Below are positions 3,821 to 47,429 of a stretch of DNA of 64,000 nt, one piece after another (position 1 is the first letter of the stretch; every line of letters begins with the position of its first letter). Position numbers and translations under genes: made by a program. Source of the DNA: Leucoraja ocellata (Eukaryota); NCBI GenBank assembly GCA_036785375.1, contig JAWMAR010000210.1, positions 1,426,001 through 1,490,000 on the forward strand, written 5' to 3'. The notes under the pieces were generated by a model. That model was not told the origin of the DNA and searched no databases. It saw only the letters and a program-made list of their open reading frames with translations.

Positions 3821-4507
3821 AATAATTCTCTTCCTTTGTAGGCTGTAGAGCATCAGTTATTGAGTATATTCAAGACCGAGATTGATATATTTTCAGATAT
3901 TAATAAGATCAGTTACTGCCCTCTATCAAATATTCAGGAGATAAAATTATATTACTTATGAAATTATTTTGTCATATTTACATTAATTACATTTTATTGG
4001 AAATAGCCTAACATGAGCAGTTTTTTTGTGTGTGTTTAATCAGTTTCCTTCAGTTACTGAGGTAACTATTGATTAGTGCAATGAGCATAAAATGATGCTG
4101 CGACAGTGTTTTCCAGCTGGATGGTCATAAAGATGTATAATTCCCACCAACTGCTTTTGTTTCTTGGACCTCTCAGTTAAACCTCTTATCAAAAAGTTAG
4201 CAAAACATCAGCTATCATCTACGAAAATAATTTTAAAAACGTGGTCATGTTTCCTTGACCAAGTGTTGACTTGGCGGCGGCTCCGTGTCTGTAACGATGT
4301 CCCCACCGATCACACTCCGGCCTCCTGACCCGCCTGTCATTGGGACAATGCCAGTGATCATGGGGCAGAAGCTGGGTCTCTGGAGCCCGGAGACTGCGGA
4401 GAGGAGTGGAGTTCAGCACAAAACAGGCCCTTCGGCCCACCTTGTCCATGCTGCGTTTGGCCCATATCCTATCCATGTACCTGTCCCGATGTCTGTTAAA
4501 TGTTCAG

Positions 4508-4769: not shown

Positions 4770-4931
4770 ACTCCATGGGCTGCACTACATCGGGACGGGT
4801 GAGGCGGGGCCGGACGCTGCGCTCCGACCCGACAGTCCCTCGACCCGAGTAGTAGCAGTCAAATGCGGGACAAACCAATTTAACCCAATAGACACGATGT
4901 CCCAGCTAATATGGGACAGTTGGTAACCCTA
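4770..4931. mobile_element. hAT (Blackjack-like) terminal fragment
   Basis: Ends GGGACAGTTGGTAACCCTA (reverse complement TAGGGTTACCAACTGTCCC) with repeated GGGAC motifs. The other end was not found. Confidence 0.5.
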
Positions 4932-4982
4932 CCCGTGACAGTACAGTAAATCCATGATAAGGAATGTCGGATTTTATTTTAA

Positions 4983-5134
4983 AGGGCGGCACAGTGGCAC
5001 AGCGATAGAACTGCTGCCTCACAGCATCGGAGACCTGGGTTTGATCCTGACCACGGCTGCTGTCGGCCTGGGATTTGCAAGTTCACCGACCGGGTGCTCC
5101 AGTTTTTTACTGCATTCCAAAGATGTGCGAGTTT
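4983..5134 (+). mobile_element. HE1/V-SINE 5' half (split by CR1; 3' half at ~8505-8635)
   Basis: The tRNA head ends at ...CCAAAGATGTGCGAGTTT. The SINE resumes at ~8505 with GAGTTTGTAGG...GGGCCGAAGGGCCTGTTTCC...CTAAACTAAA. Confidence 0.8.
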
Positions 5135-8100
5135 ATAGAAACATAGAAAATAGGTGCAGGAGTAGGCCATTCGGCCCTTCGAGCCTGCACCGCCATTCAA
5201 TATGATCATGGCTGATCATCCAACTCAGTATCCTGTACCCCCTGATCCCTTTAGCCACAAGGGCCACATCTAACGGGATCTTAAATATAGCCAATGAACT
5301 GGCCTCAACTACCTTCTGTGGCGGAGAATTCCACAGAGTCAACACTCTCTGTGTGAAAAACGTTTTTCTCATCTCGGTCCTAAAAGACTTCCCCCTTATC
5401 CTTAAACTGTGACCCCTTGTTCTGGACTTCCCCAACATTGGGACCAATCTTCCTGCATCTAGCCTGTCCAACCCCTTAATAATTGTGTAAGTTTCTATAA
5501 GATCCCCCCTCAATCTTCTAGATTCTAGCGAGTACAAGCCGAGTCTATCCAGTCTTTCTTCATATGAAAGTCCTGCCATCCCAGGAATCAGTCTGGTGAA
5601 CCTTCTCTGCACTCCCTCTATGGCAAGAATGTCTTTCCTCAGATTAGGAGACGAAAACTGTACGCAATACTTCAGGTGTGATCTCACCAAGACCCTGTGC
5701 AACTGCAGTAGAACCTCTCTGCTCCTTTACTCAAATCCTCTTGCTATGAATGCCAACATACCATTCGCTTTCTTCACTGCCTGCTGCACCTGCATGCCCA
5801 CTTTCAATGACTGGTGGCGGCAGGCGCAGGCACACCGCGACGCCCTGTGTCTCCCTTTCAAGGGAGATGCTAAAAATGCATTTCGTTGTCTCTGTACTGT
5901 ACACTGACAATGACAATAAATTGAATCATTTCATCATTTTTTTTTTGGTGTACCATGACACCCAGGTCTCATTGCATCTCCCCTTTTCCTAATCTGCCAC
6001 CATTCAGATAATAGTCTACTTTCCTGTTTTTGCCACCAAAGTGGATAACCTCACATTTATCCACATTATACTGCATCTGTCACCTTGCAGCCTCCTAGCA
6101 TCCTCCTCACAGCTAACACTGCCCCCCAGCTTCGTGTCATCCGCAAACTTGGAGATGTTGCATTCAATTCCCTCGTCCAGATCATTAATATATATTGTAA
6201 ATAGCTGGGGTCCCAGCACTGAGCCTTGCGGTATCCCACTAGTCACTGCCTGCCATTGTGAAAAGGACCCGTTTACTCCTACTCTTTGCTTCCTGTCTGC
6301 CAGCCAGTTCTCTATCCACATCAATACTGAACCCCCAATACCGTGTGCTTTAGGTTTGCATACTAATCTCTTATGTGGGACCTTGTTGAAAGCCTTCTGA
6401 AAGTCCAGATATAGCACATCCACTGGTTCTCCCTTATCCACTCTACTAGTTACATCCTCGAAAAATTCTATAAGATTCGTCAGACATGATTTACCTTTCA
6501 TAAATCAATGCTGACTTTGTCCAATGATTTCACCACTTTCCAAATGTGCTGCTATGCCATCTTTAATAACTGACTCTAGCATTTTCCCCACTACCAATGT
6601 TAGACTAACTGGTCTGTAATTCCCCATTTTCTCTCTCTTTAAAAAGTGGGGTTACGTTTGCTACCCTCCAATCCTCAGGAACTACTCCAGAATCTAAAGA
6701 GTTTTGAAAAATTATCACTAATGCATCCACTAATTCTGGGGCTACTTCCTTAAGTACTCTGGGATGCAGCCTATCTGGCCCTGGGAATTTATCGGCTTTT
6801 AATCCATTCAATTTACCTAACACCACTTCCCAGCTAACTTGGATTTCACTCAGTTCCTCCATCTCATTTGACCCCCGGTCCCCTGCTATTTCCGGAAGAT
6901 TATTTATGTCTTCCTTAGTGAAGACAGAACCAAAGTAGTTATTCAATTGGTCTGCCATGTCCTTGTTCCCCATGATCAATTCGCCTGTTTCTGACTGCAA
7001 GGGACCTACATTTGTTTTAACTAATCTTTTTCTCTTCACATATCTATAAAAACTTTTACAGTCAGTTTTTATGTTCCCTGCCAGTTTTCTTTCATAATCT
7101 ATTTTCCCTTTCCTAATTAAGCCCTTTGTCCTCCTCTGCTGGACTGAATTTCTCCCAGTCCTCTGGTAGGCTGCTTTTTCTGGCTAATTTGTACGCTTCA
7201 TCTTTTGTTTTGATACTATCCCTGATTTCCCTTGTTATCCACGGATGCACTACCTTCCCTGATTTATTCTTTTGCCAAACTGGGATGAACAATTGTCGTA
7301 GTTCATCCATGCAGTCTTTAAATGCCTTCCATTGCATATCCACCGTCAACCCTTTAAGAATTAATTGCCAGCCTATCTTGGCCAATTCACGTCTCGTACC
7401 CTCAAAGTTACCTTTCTTTAAGTTCTTTAAGTTCAGAACCCTTGTTTCTGAATTAACAATGTCACTCTCCATCCTAATGAAGAACTCAACCATATTATGG
7501 TCACTCTTACCCAAGGGGCCACGCACAACAAGACTGCTAACTAACCCTTCCTCATTACTCAATACCCAGTCTAGAATAGCCTGTTCTCTCGTTGGTTCCT
7601 CTACATGTTGGTTTAGAAAACTATCCCGCATACATTCCAAGAAATCCTCTTCCTCAGCACCCCAGCCAATTTGATTCACCCAATCTATATGTAGATTGAA
7701 GTCACCCATTATAACTGTTTTACCTTTGTTGCACGCATTTCTAATTTCCTGTTTGATGCCATCCCCAACTCCACTACTACTATTAGGTGGCCTGTACACA
7801 ACTCCCACTAACGTTTTCTTCCCCTTAGTGTTTCGCAGCTCTACCCATATCGATTCCACATCCTCCAAGCTAATGTCCTTCCTTTCTATTGCGTTAATCT
7901 CCTCTCTAACCAGCAACGCTACCCCACCTTTATTTATCCTCCACCTTGCTCCATTCCTACTCTCACTGTCACGTGGCACAGGCAGTAATCCTGAGATTAT
8001 TACCTTTGCGGTCCTTCTCCTTAACTCTCCTCTTAACCCCCTAAATTCTCTTTTCAGGACCTCTTCTCTTTTTCTACCTATGTCATTGGTACCTATATGT

Positions 8101-8504
8101 ACCACGACCTCAGGCTCCTCTCCCTCCCATTTCAGGATATCTTGGACACGTTCAGACACATCCCAGACCCTGGCACCAGGGAGTCAACTACCATCCGGGT
8201 CACCTGACTGCATCCGCAGAATTGCCTATCTGACCCCCTAACTATAGAGTCCCCTATTACTATTGCCCTCCTCTTCTTTTCCCTACCCTTCTGAGCACCA
8301 GAGGGCTATCAGACTCCATGACCTCCCACTTCTGACATCCAGAACAGAAAACTGCCCTGGATACAATACAAAGTGCTTCCTCAGGCCCACTTGTTTTGAA
8401 ATGTGACTAGAATGTGAATGGAACGTTACAGATTTGGGAACAACGGCTCCTGGGCCTCTGTGAATCGAAGCCCCGCGCTCAGTTTTTGTACAGAGTTTGT
8501 ACAG
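5135..8504 (-). mobile_element. Near-full-length, internally deleted CR1 LINE (ORF1 Zn-finger/esterase remnants, APE, RT, 3' UTR)
   Basis: ORF1 N-terminal AVFCSGCQKWEV (~8300-8360); esterase VVVHIGTND; APE VYRPP, GDFN, SDH; [25 protein letters not shown]; C-terminal LEYCVQF-like motif. Frameshifted. Confidence 0.95.
5817..5945 (+). mobile_element. Short Rex/Babar-type 3' end inserted in CR1
   Basis: Matches the 3' UTR of the element at 34730-35403 (AAGGGAGATGCTAAA...CTGACAATGACAAT). Flanked by duplicated TGGTG (5812-5816, 5946-5950). Confidence 0.75.
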
Positions 8505-35480: not shown

Positions 35481-36158
35481 TACAATAGACAATAGGTGCT
35501 GGAGTAGGTCATTTGGCCCTTCGAGCCAGCACCGCCATTCAATGTGATCATGGCTGATCATCCACAATCAGTGCCCCGTTCCTGCCGTATCCCCATATCC
35601 CTTGACTCCGTTATCTTTAAGAGCTCTATATAACTCTCTTGAAATCATCCAGAGAACCGGCCTCCACCACCCTCTGAGGCAGAGGATTCCACAGTCTCAC
35701 AACGCTCTGTGTGAAAAAGTATTTCCTCATCTCCGTTCTAAATGGCTTACCCCTTATTCTTAAACTCTGGCCCCTGGTTCTGGACTCCCCAAACATCGGG
35801 AACATGTTTCCTGCTTCTAGCGTGTCCAAACCCTTAGTAATCTTATATGTTTCAATAAGATCCCCTCTCATCCTAAATTCCAGAGTATACAAGCCCAGCC
35901 GCTCCATTCTTTCAACATATGACAGTCCCGCCATCCCGGGAATTAACCTTGTGAACTTACGCTGTACTCACCCAATAGCAAGAATGTCCTTCCCCAAATT
36001 TGGAGACCAAAACTGCACACAATACTCCAGGTGTGATCTAACTAGGGCCCGGACAACTGCAGAAGGACCTCTTTGCTCCTATACTCAACTCCTCTTGTTA
36101 TGAAGGCCAACATGCCATTTGCTTTCTTCACTGCCTGCTGTACCTGCATGCTTACTTC
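35481..36158 (-). mobile_element. CR1 3' fragment
   Basis: GLSYVERMERLGLYTLE...LWNPLP plus 3' UTR. Confidence 0.92.
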
Positions 36159-38353
36159 ATATATGGTATATCATTATTTTAGTATGTGGTTATCTCACAT
36201 AGTTTGACCTCTTGACTCCTGTCCAAGCCATAAAGGTATTGTTGCTTTAATCCTGCCTGCGATGTTAGATGAGGGAGCCAAGCAGTGCTTTATTAGCTTT
36301 GGAGTCTGGAAGATTGGTAGATGTTCATTATGACCTACTCTGCAAGTGGGAGCATGTAGAAACCAACTTGTGAATAATGGCGGCTTCAGGTTGGTACCTA
36401 GGCCAGTTAGAATCAACAAACAGACTAAGGAAAAAAACAAGAGCTTTCCGAATAATGTAAGATCTTCCTTGGTTTAATATGAGAACAGTTTTTGACTGCA
36501 ATAATATTATTAATTCATAGATTATAATAAAAATGTCATAGGCTTAGTTAGTTCGTCTGTTATAGTTTAGCACAATTCAGATATTAATTTACATTGAGAT
36601 ATCATAACCAGATTTGGAAATTAGTCTAATATGCTCCCGTCCTTTAAAGATGGCATATGGGCCTAAATGTACATTTTTATGAAGATACCAGCAGCAAAAT
36701 ATTTCTTATATCAATGGTTGAGTGGAAAAAGTCAAGCACATGGCAGGAACTTTAAAACTGTTGTCAACAGGCAAAATGTATCTCACAACAACCATACAAA
36801 TTTGGGTGAATGTGTAATATCGATCCCTTATCCAAATGTTTCTTCAACCTTTTTTAAAAGTCAATAGTTTTTTTACATCTGTGTTTAATATATAAAGTAT
36901 AATCTCAACATGCTAGAATCAATTTCCACTCATGTAAGTTGGCTTCAGAAATTCTTGGGTGACCGAAAGGCACATTAAACAGATGAGATACTGTATCGTG
37001 GGCTGCCACTGCAAAATGTTATCCTGCACAAGGGCCAAGATATCAAGCACCACCTAATCAGTTGCACACCACCAGCATGCTCAAAAGTAGGCACTTAGTA
37101 CTCGGGATATATTCTCAGCAACAGGGGCACTGATGGACTCAGCAGGAAAAGAGGTAATTATGACATTTTGCCTGGTCAGATACATCACTGACAGCACTGC
37201 AAGTCCCGGAACCTGCACTCAACAGCTAGGTGTGAATCCCTGCCCTCCTTGTGGCTACACACTGCTGTACCGGGGTGTCGCAGAGGGCTGGTGTTGTGTA
37301 GGCTGGGGTGAGTGGTGTGGCTGCTTGAAGCTGAGATGTGGGACTCATGCTTGCAGTCTGGATCACAGAGTGACTGTAGACCATTTCTGAGAACAGACAG
37401 CACCTTTGCCGATAGATTGCCCAGAGTCGACAATCTCTCTCTGTTGCAGCTGATGAAAGCTTGCTTCTTCCCACCTTCATCTCTTTGTTTAGCTGCCTAG
37501 CTCTCTGCAGCCCAGAAATTTCGCTTTGGTAACAAGCTCAACAGCCAGTGACTGCTACCAGGGTGAGCTGTGAAGCCAAACTAAATGAGGGGTTTAAGGC
37601 GGCATCCATAATAGCCAACGGGATGTGATGAGGGAGGTGGAAGTATCAGGGTAATATGCCAACACTGGGAGCAGGAGCTGCCATTCCCCAGCAATGGATC
37701 ATACTAACTTTGATAAGATAAGATAAGACTTTGCCTTCCATCACAGTGAGGAGGTGTTGGAGGTTCACTGTGATGGATGTTTATGTAAACTGTGTTAAGT
37801 GTGGGTCTTAGGGTTTTTTTGTAATGTAAAAAACTGTAGGAAATGAAATTTTGTTCAGACCTAGTTGTTTGAATGACAATAAGTAGCATTCCATTCCATA
37901 ACTACACTGGCCTGGGGTACTGCATTTTACTAATGAGTAACCACTCCACTCACCCCAGTTTGCCCAACACGTGTTCACTCTCCACACTGAGCCATGAGGG
38001 TTTATTACTGCAGATGCCGGTTGATGAAGACCCTGATATAGATATGTGACGTTTTGACTCCTTCTGTCCATTCTTATTTTACCAACAATAAAACCATCTA
38101 GTTTGGCTGCCTCCTTTTGGCGATTCAAGTAAAACTCTTTTAAAGCTACAGGTGATTATGTAATCAGAAAAAGACGAACAACTGGCATAAAGTTGCCTTT
38201 GGATAACTTTCCGTTACTTTAGAAAAAAAGCTAGTATAGGAATAGTCTAAGGTAATTTGATCTCATTATACTGTCTACCCTTGAATAGCTTTCCCTGCTC
38301 CTCAGTCAACTGTCCAGCCTGGTAACAACTTTAGTTGTGATAACAGTAGTGTA

Positions 38354-39277
38354 ACACTGGGGGGCAGTATTAGCTGTGAGGAGGATGCTGGATGCTAGGA
38401 GGCTGCAAGGTGACTTGGATAGGTTGGGTGAGTGGGCAAATGCATGGCAGATGCAGTATAATGTGGATAAATGTGAGGTTATCCACTTTGGTGGCAAAAA
38501 CAGGAAATTAGACTATTATCTGAATGGTGGCCGATTAGGAAAAGGGGAGATGCAACGAGACCTGGGTGTCATGGTACACCAGTCATTGAAAGTAGGAATG
38601 CAGGTGCAGCAGGCAGTGAAGAAAGCAAATGGTATGTTAGCATTCATAGCAAAAGGATTTGAGTATAAGAGCAGGGAGGTTCTATGGCAGTTGTACAGGG
38701 TCTTGGTGAGACCACACCTGGAGTATTGCGTACAGTTTTGGTCTCCTAATCTGAGGAAAGACATTCTTGCCATAGAGGGAGTACAGAGAAGGTTCACCAG
38801 ACTGATTCCTGGGATGGCAGGACTTTCATATTAAGAAAGACTGGATAGACTCGGCTTGTACTCGCTGGAATTCAGAAGATTGAGAGGGGATCTTATAGAA
38901 ACTTACAAAATTCTTAAGGGGTTGGACAGGCTAGATGCAGGAAGATTATTCCCGATGTTAGGGAAGACCAGAACTAGGGGTCACAGTTTAAGGATAAGAG
39001 GGAAGTCTTTTAGGACCGAGATGAGAAAATCATTTTTTACACAGAGAATGGTGAATCTGTGGAATTCTCTGCCACAGAAGGTAGTTGAGGCCAGTTCATT
39101 GGCTATATTTAAGAGGGAGTTCAATGTGGCGCTTGTGGCTAAAGGGATCAGGGGGTATGGAGAGAGGGCAGGGATGGGATACTGAGTTGGATGATCAGCC
39201 ATGATCATATCGAATGGTGGTGCAGGCTCGAAGAGCCGAATGGCCTACTCCTGCACCTATTTTCTATGTTTCTATGT
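38354..39277 (+). mobile_element. CR1 3' ~0.9 kb fragment
   Basis: LQGDLDRL...KCEVIHFG...RPHLEYCVQFWSP...LWNSLP plus tail; one in-frame stop. Confidence 0.94.
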
Positions 39278-39894
39278 AATGAGCTGGAATACACTCTGTG
39301 TGGAAAGCTTGTTGCTAATCTATTATATTCTATGATCTGTACAGAAGCTAACCATGAAATCAAATCTATCATGCAAATAATGAAATTGAATTAATTAACT
39401 CTGGCAATTTGTTGGAATAATCTAACTGATTCACAAATGCTGCTCATTGCAAAGATCTTGGCAATCCCTACTTCATCTGTTCTACATACAACTCTGGTTC
39501 CAAACTACTGCATGCAATTAATTTTTAATGTTCTCAAATTGCCTACTGATGAACAATGATCTGCATTATGAAATAAATACACAGGCATCATTTTAGTATA
39601 CTCTCTAACTGATCGTATAAATTTAAATTGTCAACATGAAATGGTTGGTTCCCAAGAAGGAAGAAATAATCAAAAGAACTGCAGCCTGACCAAATAATGT
39701 TCAGAAATGTGCATCTATCATATAACATCCAATTTTTCATCTTCACTCTTGCTTTCCATTCCACTTCTTTGTTGACCAAATATTGACTGGAAGAAGTGTG
39801 GTGCAATGAGGTACTATGGGTGGGAATGAACCTGAATCTTCAGATTGGTTCCACACTACATGGTGTTATAGCCAATGTGAAAAAGATACATCTT

Positions 39895-40048
39895 CTAGAT
39901 GCGCTGGGACGCATCCTCAGTGATGTGACCTGGGGTCATCGGGTGTTTCGGGTCTCACAACATCAGACACCCTTGCCCAGGTGACCCAGCCGGGGTTGAT
40001 CAGGCCCCGACTTGCATCCCAGCAGCAACCGCCCACGGATCAGCCCTC
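39895..40048 (-). mobile_element. 3' end of a non-LTR retrotransposon (probably HERO/R2-Hero type), highly structured
   Basis: Minus strand ADPWAVAAGMQVGA* followed by ...GGGTGTCTGATGT...GACCCGAAACACCC...ACATCACTGAGGA resembles my recollection of fish HERO 3' ends (not verified by search). Multiple complementary blocks. Confidence 0.55.
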
Positions 40049-42215
40049 TAAATAACTACTCTGTAGTGATTGGGAGACTCTAGTGCGTGGAGGGACTGGG
40101 CTCTGTGGGGTGAGTCCCGGACGGGCTCCTCCTGCATCTCACCAGGTTCAAGGCCTGTGCGGTGCACCTCTTTCTCTTTCTCCGAGCATTTCATTCTCAT
40201 CTCATTCTCGCCACGGTGGTTGTCATCTTAGTACTTTCCAAATTGGCACAAACTGCTGTAGTAACTCAGCGGGACCGGCAGCATCTCTGGAGAACATCGA
40301 TGGGAGATGTTTCGGGTCAGGAAACCTCTTCATCTCTTTCTTAGTTGTGTTTTCCTTGTTGTTCCATAGTAGAAGCTTTGCGGAAAGAAGGGAACATAAA
40401 CATGTAACAAACAAAACTGACTGCGGTTAGATTGACCATCACACAAGGTTTGAGAGGACAGCTACCTTTTGAGTGGATTTAATCTCGCATGATGTAGATC
40501 ATTCGGATACATGTCTAACCATCAAAATGAACGTAGGAGATACTCTGGCCAATCACATGCAGCAAAATTGTATCCGATCCAAAAACGTAACTAATTCCTC
40601 ATCAAAATCATGTCAGGAACCCAAACCTGCTGTTCTGGAGACAGCAACAGGCTTTTCTTAATACTGTGTATGGACTTAGTGAAGCTGCTTCACAGGTTTG
40701 CTTGTAATCTAGATACCGAATGCAGGTAGTAGTGAAAGCTAAGTAGTTCCACAATTTGCAGCAAAAGACTGCAGCCCCCGAGCCTGACCTAAAGTAATAG
40801 GCTACAACTAAGCAATTAAAAAGAAGTAGAAACAAAGATGCTGGTTAATATGCGAAACGACACAAAGAGCTGGAATAATTCAACGGGTCAGGCAGTATCT
40901 CTGGAGAACATGGATAGGTGAGAAGGGTATGGTCGAGGCCTGTCTACAGGAGGGTAGTGGCTCCTCCAACCATGTTGTGTGCGCAACAGACAAGGCTGAA
41001 GTGCCTGAAAGTATCACTGACTGAATTTGTGTGATTTTGTTCCAAAATCCTGACCCACCAATCAACTTAGTTTTCTCCATGAAAATACAAAGAATCAGCT
41101 GAATGCCAGGGCACAATGAGGGCCATGGGGCCAGACACCCAGATAGTTATGCTGGGGACCAACAAACAGGTGCAGTTATAGCCTGCCAATATATTGATAC
41201 CACTGTAGCACTGCCATCTACCCAACAATATTGAATATTGCCAAGAAATCAGATAAAAAACAAACACATCCAGCTACTGTCCTTTAAGCCCCTTCCCAGC
41301 TGTCAGCACTGATTTGGAGTCAGGAAACATGTCGTGAATTAAAGAAGAAAGAAGAAACTATAGATGCTGGTTCATTGTTCAAAAGACTCAATGTGCTGGT
41401 GTATGGGAGCTTTTGTTTCGGGTCAAGATCCTTCCTCAGACTTGTTCAACCTGAAACATCACCAATCCATGCAGTCCAGAGATGCTGCCTGACCCGCTGA
41501 ATTACTCCAGCACTTTACGTCCCCTTGTCAATTGAGCACCTGTTTGCTGATATTTTGCTAAGTATTGTAGCTAGTGGGGTTTGATTCTATCAAAGTCTCG
41601 ATCCAAACATGGATGTTCAAAAACACACAAACATTACAGAAGAGTTGAGAGTAGCTGACTGGAACCTCACTTTCACTTGGACTTGCAGAAAAGGAATCCA
41701 AGCAAAACTGAACAATGAAACTCAAAACAGAATTGCTTGTGGAACCTTTGTCAGTTCAAACATTTTCAGTTGTGCCATCAGTGACTTTTCATTGGTATTC
41801 AATTAAAAAAATAATTATATCTGGTGTTCATTCCAATGTGACTCGTAATGCTGAAACTATTCCAGACAGCCTCAAGCAGGGCCTGAAGGACATGCAAAGT
41901 TGTGCGACGAGTTAAAATCAGCATTTCCGGCCACTAGGTTCAACATCATTACAATGCTGAGCATCAAGAAGCTCTTCTATCTCCCCATGATCTTCCATGA
42001 CACCCCATGCCTTTGATCTCACTGCCAGAGACATCTAGGATTCGTTGGTGGCCTGGAACAGTTGTGTCAGCACCTAGGCAATAAGTAAAAGATGGTGTTC
42101 GGGTACTGTGGATTGTGCAGCTTGCCTCATCTCTGAAAACTTAATAATCGTCTTTAAAATCTGAGTCAAGTGTAATGGAAACATTGTCACTCGCCTTGAA
42201 TGGGTAAAACTGGAA

Positions 42216-42443
42216 AGGGCCTGTCCTACTTTCACGACCTAATTCACGACCTTTTTTACTCGTGGACATTTTACATCATGGTAGAAAAACGCCCCAACCT
42301 ACTTGATGCCACGAGTACCTATGACTAGCATCACGGCCTACCTACGACCTACCTACGACCTTGTGACGACCATGCTGTGAGTATGATTCAAGGGCAAACT
42401 CGGCAGAGGTCGTGAATTAGGCCGTGAAAGTGGGGCAGGCCCT
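42216..42443. mobile_element. Harbinger-like MITE (same family as 10018-10243)
   Basis: TIRs AGGGCCTGTCCTACTTTCACG / CGTGAAAGTGGGGCAGGCCCT; internal sequence closely matches the 10 kb copy. Confidence 0.88.
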
Positions 42444-43079
42444 TTACTGTACTTGAAAGATATAGTTTATTGATCAAAACTCTACTTTTCCTGCAAATGA
42501 ATCCAACTAAAACAGCGTTTCCTATTCATTGCAAGGTGTCTTCAGCAGAATCCCATCGACCAGTACATTTCCAATAACCGAGCAAAACATTTCTTGGGTC
42601 ACTTTAGCTCCAGGCTTTGATTGAGGTTTAGGACATCAAAACAGGAAAGCAAACAGAAACAAATATTTGTTTGGGTATTTTTCAAATACTAATGGATGTA
42701 TTAAATGGACAAGGAGACTGCTGATGCTGGAGTCTTCAGAACAAAAATAAAATGTTGGAGGAACTTGGTGGGTCAGACAGCATCAGTGGAGGAAAATGGA
42801 CAGACGACATTTTGAGTCCAGACCCTTTAAACTGAAAAAATTCCCGAACCAAAATGCCATCTGTCCTTTTCCCTCCACCTATGCTGCCTGGCCTGCTGAA
42901 TTCCTTGAACACAGTGTTTTCTGCCCATTGAATATATTAAGCCATATTTCACAAGACATCGTATTTGCCAGTCTTTCTATTTCCACCTTGGGTTACCCAG
43001 TCATTGGTAAGAACAGCATGTCAAAACACTGTTTCAACAGAATTGGAAATGGCTTATGTAATGACATTGAATCATACAG

Positions 43080-43815
43080 CAATGAAACAGGCACTTCGGT
43101 CCAACATGCCCCATCTAGACCTGCATTTGGCCCTTATCCCTCTAAACCTGTCCTATCCATGTACCTGTCCAAATGTCTCCAAAAGCTTTTGTGATAGTCC
43201 CTGCCTCGGTAGCTCATTCGATACACTCACCACCCTTTGTGTTAAAAAGTAACCCCTCGGATTCCTATAAAATCTTTCCCCCCTCACCTTAAATCTATCC
43301 TATCCCTGTACCTGTCCAAACGTGTTTTAAATGTTGTTATAGCACTACCTCCTCTACAGCTCGTTCCTTATACCAATCACCCTTTGTGTAAAAAAAAGTT
43401 GCCCTTCAGGTTCATATTAAGTCACCCCCCGTTCACCTTAAACCTATGTCCACTGGTTCTTGATTTCCCTACTCTGGGTAAAAGACTCTGCATTTAACCT
43501 ATCTATTTTCTTGATCTTATACACTTCTATAAGATCATCCCTCAACTTCTTGAGCTCCAAGGAATAAAGTTCTAGCCTCCTCAACCTCTCCCATATTGCT
43601 CAGGCTCTTGAGTCCTAGCAAGATCCCCGTAAATCTTCTCTGCACCGTTTCCAGTTAGACATCATCTTTCCTATACCATGGTGACCAAAACTGAACACAA
43701 TACTCAATGTGGCCTCACCAACATCTTTTATAACGGCGACATGACCTTCCAACTTCTATGCTCAATACTCTGACTGATGAAGGCCAATGTGCCAAAAGCC
43801 TTTTGCCAACCCTAT
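43080..43815 (-). mobile_element. Older CR1 family fragment
   Basis: GACCAAAACTGAACACAATACTC...GCCTCACC (reverse of RPHLEYCVQFW), with a duplicated 3' segment. Confidence 0.75.
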
Positions 43816-44911
43816 TGTATTCCCTTAAAATTCAGCAGCAATTGAAAAATAGGCCTTAAATTTAGATCCATCAGACATCACGCATGTTACAGCACATACT
43901 GTTTTGATTCCAACATGAGTGCACATTTGGTGACTCATGATAGATGTCATTTGGTGAGAGTGTAGTCATGCTCAGTGAAGGTCTGCAGAGTTGGCAGATG
44001 TTAGTAAGACTTGTGTTGCAGAGCTCAACACTTCAGGTTACAACGTGTCTAAACCTCATACAGCTGAACCTAAGTATTTCAATGGATCACCAACTTGTTT
44101 TGGATTGCTTGCTGGTTGATTCTACTGGCTTTGGCTATGATTGCACAAGTATTTGGGAGGTTTTAAGAGTTCTTTAAAGTTGCAGAATACTACAATGAAT
44201 GATAACCAGGTGCCACTGGACTTAATTCTGACATCAAAGCTTTTGAACACATCAGATGGTCCTAGATGGTGTGCGCTTATAAAGTGCATGAATGGGCAAA
44301 TGTCATGCAGAGCTGGGTAAACACCTGGATGTGGGCTTCCTGTATGAAGCTGTATACACAAGGGGTGTTCAGGAAGCATTTTTCCCATTTTAACGTTAGC
44401 CTGGAACAGAGTGAGGACTTGATGAAGGAGAACATCAATGAAATTTAGCATCTCCTGTATCCACAATTGAACATGACAAGAAACATGTTGCTAATGATCA
44501 TCAAGATGGTGGTGGCTGTGAACTCTGACATGGTGGGCTCCTTCTGGGATGGAGCTGGAGATATACCTCCACTATTGCAATAAGGAAGGTTACTGGTGTT
44601 CTCTTTTCCAAAAGAGATAGCTACATTTATTTTTATTTTTCCCGAGAATAGAATAGAAGGCAGAATAAGCACGTAAATCTCATCATAGTTTTGGATGTCG
44701 TCAACTGTTGGTTGTGGCACCCATTGTTTTAGATAAGTAAGTAATTTCTTGCCTATGGCAATGGGTAAGAATGGGAAGTGCGTGTCACTGGTTGACAGTG
44801 GTGAAGGATGATGTATCAAGCTTATTAAGAAATAGAATCCAATCACACTGTATTTGCATGTTTTCTTTTAATCTGCAAACTGTTTCACACTAAAATAATA
44901 TTAATTGTGAT

Positions 44912-45207
44912 ATAGACACAAAAAGCTGAAGTAACTCAGCAGGACAGGGAACATCTCTGAAGAAGGAATGGGTGATGTTTCGGGTCGAAACCCTTCTTCA
45001 GACAGAGTATAACATTAACGCTAGAGTCAGATGACATAGTCTGAAGAAGGGTCTCGACCCGAAAATTCTGGAGTAAGTCAGCCAGACAGGCAGCATCTTT
45101 GTAGAGAAAGAATGGATGATACTTCATGTCCCGACCCTTCTTCAGACTGACTGGATTTTAAGTCTATTTTCAGTGTCAACCAGCATCTGCAGTTCCTTCC
45201 GACACAA
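44912..45207. mobile_element. Cluster of rearranged PLE terminal fragments
   Basis: Hammerhead-like cores at 44974-45001 (-) and 45041-45064 (+), plus further inverted pieces. Confidence 0.75.
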
Positions 45208-47429
45208 TATTAACCGAGCGTTGAACGTTTACAGCGCTCTAAAGGGCATCAAAATGGCAACAAAATTGGTTTATATTTAATTTCCTACTGCATCAACTTG
45301 CTCTTTCCTACCTTAAGCTGAGCAATAAGGCTGCAAGGGACAGGAAAAGAGAAATCACCTTTGTCAGATTTTCACTTCTGCTGCAGGGACAGAACAGTTG
45401 AGTCTACTATTGTCAAGTGTACCGAGGTACAGTGAAAACATTTTTTTGTTGCGTGCTATGCAGTCAGTGAAAGGACTGCATGATTACGATCAAGCTGTCC
45501 ACTGTGTAGAGATACAGGATAAGGGAATAAGATGAGCATAGTTAGGATAAGAAATGCTGCTATTGAAATAAGTGTGTGCTGTAAAAGAGTGGAGCGATTG
45601 TAATGAATGATTGCAGATCTACCTCTGGGAGCCGCAGGTAGAGAGGCATCTGGCATCAACACCATCTTGAATATGGCACTGATTGGATGGGGGGAAAGCA
45701 TAGATGCATAAGATGCATATGAATTTGTTGAATAGTGCTTTATTTATCATTTATGCAACTGCACAGTGAAATTCATTTTGCATATATTACACATGCAGGC
45801 TCTGCCATTTCTGACGCCATTAGTCAAAATCTAAACTCTGGTCAGCCCATCTTGACCATCTTGTTGTCTTGCAGCCGACCTTGAAAGTGCTGGAGGCATT
45901 ATCGTGGTTCACCCTCCTACCGGCTCATGGTCCTCATGTTCGATGTCTCCAGCTGCCACCCAGTTACGCTGTCTGCCGAGCCTCCGGGCAGGTCCCTGGT
46001 CCCACCCACTGACGAACCTTCAGTCGGGACCCGACGACGACATGCTTGAGGACGTTTGGGAAGGGAAAGGTGGTTAGAGCTAGGATAGGCAGCAGTTCAC
46101 CATGACTGGAACGTCAGGATAAGTTCTTTGAGGAAAAATTGGATGGCAGACTTGAAGGGGAGTTGTTCAGTAACTGGTGAGGGAAAATTTTACAAAATCA
46201 GATAACTTAAGGTCAGGATGGCCTTTTCGACAGTGGTGTCAAAGTTCAATTTACCGTTAATATTATTTGCTGTGAAACATAATGTAGATTAAAATAAAAC
46301 AATTAAGCAGGAATGTCATTTTGTGCTATTTCTTACCAACATACTGTATAAGGAATTGGATTATATGCATGTAAAGTCCCACAGCTGAGCTGATGGAAGA
46401 GTTCATTCCAGGTTGTTGAGTAGTTTGTGTCGGAAGGAACTGCAGATGCTGGTTTACACTGAAAATAGACTTAAAATCCAATCGGTCTGAAGAAGGGTCT
46501 GGACCTGAAATATCACCCATTCTTTCTCTCCAAAGATGCTGCCTGGCTGGCTGACGTAGAAACATAGAAAATAGGCGCAGGAGTAGGCCAATCGAGCCTG
46601 CACCACCATTCAATATGATCATGGCTGATCATCCAGCATGTTCAGTCTGTTGATGTTGAGTAGTGTGATCGAGTGTTGTATGAGATTGGGGGTGAAGACT
46701 GTATTCAACTAGAGTTGAGGGATATAGATGGGGTCAGGTAAGATCATTTAGATTGGGGATCCAGGGGTTGGGGACAGAGTGATCAGAGGTTTGGAATATA
46801 GAAGTTGGGGCAGAGAGATAATCATGCAGTAAAGAAATAAATTATTTGGAGCCACATTATTGTGATGGACTCTTACATGTTCACTGAAATAGCCTCGCAA
46901 GTCATTCCCTGGGATTAAAAAACCTGCACTGAAAAACAAAAGAATCAAAGAAAACCAAACACTTGATATGGATGTTGACACTGGATCTGGATAAGACAAC
47001 GTTTACATTTGGTCAAGTCAACCCTGCAAAATTCCTCATAAACCTCTGAATAATGATTTCTTAATTGGGGAGCTTTCCCACAGATTTATCAAATGACATC
47101 CCAGACATACTTGCACTCAGAGAATACATCATCCATCATAATCCCGGTATGTGTTTTATCCCACCAGCATTAAAGATCCACTAGAACTAGCAGCACTATG
47201 GGATACTTTATCCAAATGTTATAAGGAGGCATGTTTTTAAATGAAACGTAACTCAAAAGTTATCTCCATGAGGTTTCAGAAGGTTGTATCTGTTTGAAAG
47301 CCTTTGATATTTGATATTTGAAATTCTAGGGAAAGTGCAATGTGTCTTTAAAAAGGTGCAAAATCCTTATAATATTTTTTTTGGTTAACTCTTTACCATA
47401 AACGTATCTGGACTGTCAACAGTCTGGAC

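Follow-up and report, generated by a model that had tools for sequence, protein, structure and literature searches.

A Split Hammerhead-Type Core in the Tail of HERO-like LINEs, Predicted to Self-Cleave and Possibly to Yield a Circular RNA Template

The tail of a HERO-like LINE, one copy of which lies on the minus strand of the window (the whole stretch of 64,000 nucleotides that was analyzed), appears to carry a split-core, hammerhead-type RNA that is predicted to cleave itself and that, on balance, probably serves to turn the RNA of the element into a circular template. Covariation among distant relatives makes it almost certain that the fold is real and deeply conserved. Self-cleavage is predicted from the same comparisons and is very probable. 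The cyclic order of the core elements has already been published, while the split of the A9-G10.1 link appears to be new: this wiring was not found in the open literature searched.

Identification of the Motif

The minus strand of the locus contains a GUC^ triplet with a predicted cut at 39966/39965, GAAA at 39949-39946 and CUGAGGA at 39920-39914. Stem III is formed by 39972-39967/39946-39941, stem I by 39965-39960/39926-39921, and an 11-bp helix by 40023-40013/39913-39903. A first-pass annotation of this DNA had reported these letters, stems and coordinates, and all of them were recovered as given. The strand order at the locus is substrate, GAAA, CUGANGA. It had been described as one that no permutation of types I, II and III gives; a non-circular cyclic order of this kind is already in print (PMC10085705).

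The window was scanned with a strict descriptor of the motif, which matched once and gave no matches in 60 Markov-resampled windows or in 120 viral control loci. No protein relative was found in viral contigs, and pattern-scan matches there were at chance level and were used as controls only. The core of dead family-A copies (see below) decays approximately like its surroundings (9/510 vs. 142/5533), as might be the case if the motif were a chance resemblance within a decayed repeat, but such decay is expected after insertion. Chance resemblance is ruled out by the empty control scans, by core conservation and by covariation across distant families, and its probability is practically negligible. 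No Rfam family covers the site (nine matches at E ≤ 5 in 36000-46000, none overlapping). When compared to shuffled sequences, the minus strand folded with a z of -3.66 and the plus strand with a z of -2.54; folding without pseudoknots recovered helices P1 and P2 and mispaired the core.

The window copy has an intact core and three CpG-site changes (40016, 39982 and 39974). One of these accounts for the G-U wobble at 40016 in the 11-bp helix, to which a strand-specific meaning had been attached: it is a change in the window copy at a CpG site, and family copies have C (34), T (14) or A (1) at this position. At 39974, the window copy has A where most copies have G.

The Host Element

On alignment with its relatives, the locus is the 3′ end of a dead, truncated and internally deleted copy of a HERO-like LINE. 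The earlier suggestion that a hammerhead core in noncanonical order sits at the end of a HERO-like element is supported. The copy belongs to family A, whose 533-nt unit derives from an RT+RLE non-LTR retrotransposon by internal deletion; the deletion joint is at u354|u355 in the family and near 40054|40053 in the window copy. A short further match extends to ~40221, beyond the 5′-truncated family-A copy. Family-A parents with RT/RLE were found in genome G000, as was a second, longer family (B). The repeat is represented by at least 40 scored copies with 93-100% identity (among 1306 first-look candidates in G000). Family-A copies have a fixed 3′ end and variable 5′ ends, and LTR-retroelement genes are absent.

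The reading frame of family A fuses an N-terminal zinc-finger-like piece, which matches teleost RT proteins, to the last codons of those proteins. The P1 5′ strand overlaps the last codons of this ORF remnant, with the stop codon at 40002-40000. The teleost RT relatives carry RVT_1 (E ≤ 6e-19), and columns P86 D87, E102, and E113 K118 are invariant in the C-terminal endonuclease region of relatives. The parent elements encode an RT plus a C-terminal CCHC and a PD..D/ExK endonuclease and are, by this composition, RLE-type non-LTR retrotransposons. Both ends of the 533-nt unit derive from the RT+RLE element and not from Penelope. HERO is used as a name on the basis of 57% identity between the endonuclease region and BAC82599, a Tetraodon protein that, judging by the species, we take to be HEROTn (AB097131). 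The element ORFs have an N-terminal Cys-His motif, which is reported to be absent from HERO (PMC2790886).

Several other repeats were noted along the way. A second copy (~99%) of 3.2 kb around the locus is present on another contig (L002) and is either a segmental duplication or an uncollapsed haplotype. At five loci (L037, L039, L040, L050 and L052), family-A pieces are repeated with a period of ~1840 bp together with ~1270 bp of other DNA. The window itself also contains an ORF for an APE-type endonuclease (7113-8183, minus strand, PF14529), an ORF with PF09004 (34901-35416, minus strand) and a LINE 3′ fragment (38355-39270, plus strand), which presumably resembles cartilaginous-fish CR1-like repeats.

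Table 1. Features of the family-A copy and of the proposed RNA fold in the window.
Feature	Position	Strand	Evidence
5′-truncated family-A copy, unit positions 218-532	39876..40190	-	BLAST 93.7% to L010 unit; alignment
P1 5′ strand	40013..40023	-	11/11 pairs changed on both sides; 74.4% of cells paired
P2 hairpin, 8 bp	39988..40012	-	8/8 pairs with double changes; 82% paired
Stem II 5′ strand GGGUC, G39987 = G10.1	39983..39987	-	97.2% paired with 39954-39950; covariation 0.835; 0/500 shuffles
Stem III extension 5′ strand and non-bulged k-turn strand	39973..39981	-	Arm 85.4% paired
Stem III 5′ strand with GUC; predicted cut 39966/39965	39966..39972	-	Stem III 95.3% paired
Stem I 5′ strand	39960..39965	-	96.6% paired; 5/5 pairs with double changes
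Linker between stems I and II; length and sequence vary	39955..39959	-	Relatives' alignment
Block G: stem II 3′ strand, GAAA (39949-39946), stem III 3′ strand	39941..39954	-	Core-letter counts
K-turn bulge and GA (39940-39936), stem III extension 3′ strand (39934-39929)	39929..39940	-	K-turn pattern, pairing
Stem I 3′ strand and CUGAGGA (39920-39914)	39914..39926	-	Core-letter counts
P1 3′ strand, directly after A9; contains the stem II strand of the first-pass annotation	39903..39913	-	Covariation
Terminal hairpin (39902-39888) and fixed 3′ end, putative priming region	39876..39902	-	Hairpin in families A and B; fixed 3′ ends

Sequence Sets

Relatives were collected as 79 metagenome loci that were fetched by endonuclease protein only (best 80 of 274 stretches). 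Eight were too short, 58 were parsed and 13 were not; when the latter were compared to our own covariance model, nine matched at E < 1e-7, one matched weakly and three did not match. A set of 60 rows, less 2 incomplete and 16 redundant ones, left 42 rows for core and stem counts. Covariation was calculated from a structure-blind MAFFT alignment of 43 rows (median protein identity of the relatives 47%), and kinship was controlled for with 19 phylogenetically independent pairs on the endonuclease tree (34-84% protein identity). Since the parser placed the cut site so as to maximize stems I and III and used the core letters for selection, the core-letter and stem I/III counts are partly built in.

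A Split-Core Fold of Six Helices

In the six-helix model, 86.1% of 1667 cells are paired and double changes occur at 37 of 40 pairs; this was equaled in 0/500 shuffles, and slid controls reached 35-41%. The elements follow one another in the order P1a, P2, stem II 5′ strand, arm with k-turn, stem III 5′ strand-NUH^-stem I 5′ strand, linker, stem II 3′ strand-GAAA-stem III 3′ strand, arm, stem I 3′ strand-CUGANGA, P1b. Hammerheads join A9 to position 10.1 directly or via 1-2 nt. According to the model, A9 here runs into P1 rather than into G10.1, and G10.1 is delivered by P2, which stacks on P1; on the covariation data, the A9-G10.1 link is split by these two stacked helices. In 30/42 rows, P2 adjoins both P1 and stem II without any intervening unpaired base (0/0-nt junction).

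The first-pass annotation had proposed that covariation of stems I and III and invariance of the core letters should be sought among copies, and both are seen across the relatives. The three stems (I, II and III) show 95-97% pairing, with double changes at 14/16 pairs. The GGGUC/GACCC helix of stem II has 62 compensatory cells in 43 relatives, and its closing pair R10.1-Y11.1 is G-C in 38 of them, G-U in 3 and unpaired in 2. In 32/42 rows, stem III is extended by a k-turn (C stem, 3-nt bulge, tandem G-A/A-G and NC stem), as judged by sequence pattern. The P2 loop (39995-40004 in the window) frequently contains the palindromes UGAUCA, UGGCCA or GACGUC across relatives, which hints at loop-loop dimerization.

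A different wiring had been put forward in the first-pass annotation, which amounts to a type-SGC hammerhead with stem II (GCGUC/GACCC) placed after CUGANGA, possibly switched off by the 11-bp helix and possibly processing the 3′ end of the element. Four of the five pairs of that stem can form in the window copy, its pairing is slightly above the shuffle control (54.9% vs. 46.9%, 1/500), and the published SGC-1 shows the same U-G after the core (PMC10085705). However, GCGUC/GACCC is worth 0.0 kcal/mol compared to -7.1 for GGGUC/GACCC and is paired in 54.9% vs. 97.2% of cells (43 rows). In the 42-row set, the upstream strand forms 197/210 pairs (swap control 126 ± 6) and the downstream strand 114/210 (98 ± 6); perfect 5/5 stems are formed by the upstream strand in 34/42 rows and by the downstream one in 0/42 at any of three offsets. 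Among the 19 independent pairs, the split stem II keeps 13/16 double changes and the downstream one 4/12, the latter being broken by 28 single changes. Between families A and B, there are four compensatory changes in the 11-bp helix, and the downstream stem II is mismatched in both. The 11-bp helix had been suggested as a possible on/off switch that sequesters stem II; since it covaries at 11/11 pairs and is compatible with the upstream stem II, it is a part of the fold (P1) and not a switch. As insertions do not end at the cut site either (see below), the type-SGC wiring with a switch is very improbable.

Conservation of the Catalytic Core

CUGANGA, GAAA and NUH are found in a three-helix arrangement, as in hammerheads, with letters present in 40-42 of 42 rows, counts that are partly parser-selected. 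U4, G5, A6, A9, A13, A14 and A15.1 were found in 42/42 rows and G12 in 40/42. Free variation is confined to N7 and H17: all four bases occur at N7, and position 17 is U in 17 rows, C in 16, A in 9 and G in none of the 42. C3-G8 is an established pair of the hammerhead core. The sole change of G8 is accompanied by C3>U, giving U3 with A8 (L290:3734-3856). This conservation pattern argues for catalysis. A natural core variant with U3 and G8 was also observed (L265:2129-2251).

Raw RNA reads of a related species (1-6% of six runs) cover both strands, mostly continue into host sequence and have no end pile-up or junction excess; because fragmented libraries cannot show a cut, the RNA reads are no evidence either way. 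In short reads, the head-to-tail junction described below is seamless. Approximately 25 bp hold the two predicted cleavage products together, so product release is not obvious. None of the hammerheads with demonstrated activity in the literature searched has its A9-G10.1 link split.

Insertion Ends and Head-to-Tail Copies

The 3′ ends of insertions lie 88-91 nt downstream of the cut site. All 60 copies retrieved with the 3′ fragment extend across this site, and it is the start of none of them: 30/30 family-A copies continue at least 124 nt upstream of it (duplicates included), and 30/30 family-B copies at least 98 nt (duplicates included; the query began one base early). The ribozyme defines neither the inserted 3′ end nor the 5′ end, and the processing of the 3′ end by cleavage, as initially envisaged, is not supported by these data. 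No target-site duplications were evident.

Out of 30 copies that reach the unit start, 27 carry the element's own tail in front of it, with a precise junction; in 11 of these 30 loci, the sequence in front extends upstream beyond the cut site, and no locus begins at it. The 3′ ends are ragged, extending 0-6 nt into 5′ sequence (41 of 53 were anchored), from which it follows that the template ran on past the priming point. The upstream repeats span the internal deletion, the same as in the downstream unit, and thus both turns carry it. In family B, upstream repeats are up to ~3 kb long. Of the metagenome loci with room, 12/42 re-enter the ORF start, a layout that short-read collapse could mimic. 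In other species, predicted public proteins include translations of the ribozyme region (N-termini of P0009 and P0018, C-terminus of P0005), with the same head-to-tail layout.

The two repeats of one insertion were compared in each family. For family B, which is autonomous, 33 loci were fetched and 17 had enough overlap; L392 was dropped as a probable DNA-level duplication, leaving 16 (the result is similar with L392 in). The two repeats diverge by 4.19%, compared to 5.52% for permuted partners (16 loci; 0/3000), share 24 non-majority bases (16 loci; 0/3000 permutations) and are discordant at 12 of 91 frequent sites vs. 27.4 expected (16 loci). In the short family A, the two repeats are no closer than random pairs (8.5% vs. 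8.65%; 21 loci, a comparison of low power in a star-like family). At family-A site u479, repeats disagree in 7/17 loci (hand count; P ~1e-5 at 5% decay), which is not expected from two faithful passes over one monomer circle. Two family-B copies, L383 and L402, look mosaic. On our reading, the repeats were probably copied for the most part from a single source, with multimers, jumping or a hot spot contributing some mosaicism.

Insertion of the element into its own copies was considered as a source of the tails at 27/30 unit starts and was rejected, as the flanking DNA on the 3′ side is unrelated and variants are shared between family-B repeats. Frequent non-CpG polymorphisms occur at family-A unit positions 25, 110, 152, 160, 330 and 479 (L001-L102), with weak or absent linkage (330/479, p = 0.009), which suggests mosaic templates or hot spots. 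At two loci (L070:1052-1549 and 4894-5391; L392), a family-B element has on either side a 498-nt repeat, 187 nt of which are AT-rich and host-like; this has the look of a long duplication that took in both flank and tail.

Comparison with Known Systems

Hammerhead types I, II and III have the cyclic order C, G, S without a core pseudoknot, unlike the RNA described here, in which GAAA precedes CUGANGA. The closest published relatives are the non-circularly permuted type-SGC/CSG hammerheads, in which the substrate is followed by GAAA and then by CUGANGA (Eckert et al. 2023, PMC10085705). With these, the present RNA shares a noncanonical cyclic order, a short stem I-to-stem II linker and two core pseudoknots (PMC10085705). 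The strand order is thus that of type SGC, but block C (CUGANGA and both flanking paired strands), which is assumed to be uninterruptible there (PMC10085705), is not intact (54.9% paired, 0/42 with 5/5 pairs) and appears to be split, with P1/P2 bridging A9 and G10.1. Also unlike in type SGC, the 5′ strand of stem II lies on the 5′ side, and a k-turn arm extends stem III. Visual inspection of families A and B did not reveal the SGC helix "I" (distal stems I-II). Eckert et al. describe SGC RNAs from metatranscriptomes and, with the exception of one GCS candidate, report none from known organisms' genomes (PMC10085705). The search pattern of that study requires a paired stem II after CUGAUGA(U)G (PMC10085705). 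Since block C is split here and no paired stem II follows the core, the pattern would miss the motif.

Animal retrozymes are cut to monomers and circularized mainly by RtcB in vitro (PMC7229834). Non-LTR retrozymes consist of units a few hundred nt long, arranged head to tail and each bearing a single hammerhead (PMC7229834); family A (533 nt) has such anatomy. They differ in carrying type I hammerheads and in being tied to Penelope, whereas the split-core RNA belongs to an RT+RLE LINE and lies in the autonomous element itself (PMC7229834; bioRxiv 10.64898/2026.07.22.740005). The Penelope/retrozyme preprint contains no mentions of HERO, Zebulon or RLE (bioRxiv 10.64898/2026.07.22.740005). The elements studied here resemble the HERO clade, including Zebulon, in having a single ORF, an RT with a C-terminal CCHC and a PD..D-type endonuclease, no fixed target and variable 5′ ends (PMC4640811, PMC2790886, PMC3636483). 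In the open literature searched, neither a ribozyme nor a circular intermediate was reported for HERO-clade elements.

Bouneau et al. (2003) are said to have described partial tandem arrays and to have given the name Zebulon. The tandem structure of a pufferfish (Tetraodon) non-LTR element is in print, as the title of that paper indicates (PMC7599744). R2 is likewise an RLE LINE with a self-cleaving RNA on its transcript, a 5′ HDV-like ribozyme (PMC13725137). Here, in contrast to R2, the cut site is the start of no copy, and the ribozyme is of another class. The cut made by the R2 ribozyme defines the 5′ end of a linear template.

Discussion

A circle produced by cleavage and ligation, as in animal retrozymes, would explain most of the copy pattern. 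In such a scheme, a longer-than-unit copy would be transcribed, the transcript would be cut at both ribozymes, and the monomer would be closed by the ribozyme or by a tRNA ligase. The RT would then prime inside the circle and copy more than one turn, which would regenerate the repeat, much as LTRs are regenerated. Variant sharing between the family-B repeats fits a circular template.

One can also imagine an active ribozyme without a covalent circle, which would trim host co-transcripts or control RNA level or translation, head-to-tail copies being made by template jumping or from uncut multimers. End-to-end template jumping by the R2 RT is known, copies that read through the cut site are likewise compatible with uncut templates, and the mosaic repeats (u479 discordant in 7/17 loci; L383 and L402) are readily accommodated, as are two small deletions that touch the cut site (L068 and L469) and an internal join in L401 that lies 0-5 nt from it. 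The last is a single case, a family-B copy with an internal deletion, in which the downstream piece resumes near oriented position 4184. Yet the junctions are precise in 27/30 copies, the frayed 3′ ends show that the template continued past the junction, 0/60 copies start at the cut site, and the sharing of family-B variants needs repeated regeneration from the same source. We regard an active ribozyme without a circle as unlikely, though it is the strongest competitor. It is improbable that the RNA is, instead, a conserved protein-binding or priming structure with a hammerhead-like core and no useful cleavage rate. K-turns are protein-binding motifs, and a k-turn is present; the fold lies just upstream of the priming site, and the cut site bears no genomic or RNA scar. 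Against this stand the catalysis-type pattern (G5, A6, A9, A13 and A14 invariant, N7 free and H17 never G), maintained at 34-84% protein identity, and the U3-A8 compensation.

Extended to the family, the preferred reading, a self-cleaving tail that yields a circular template, would mean that a whole clade of autonomous RLE LINEs replicates via circular RNA generated by a seventh hammerhead topology, with the RT priming internally and copying more than one turn and thereby regenerating a terminal repeat, i.e., rolling-circle target-primed reverse transcription. We give this broader proposal an even chance. If true, a hammerhead topology would exist outside the six-permutation scheme, block C would no longer be uninterruptible, and animal genomes would contain non-circularly permuted ribozymes in at least hundreds of copies. 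For the tandem layout of HERO/Zebulon-like LINEs, there would be a testable mechanism, which would also tell how a LINE with no obvious fixed 5′ end keeps full-length copies. Priming by an RLE retrotransposase inside a circular RNA would, in addition, be relevant to the engineering of R2-type gene insertion.
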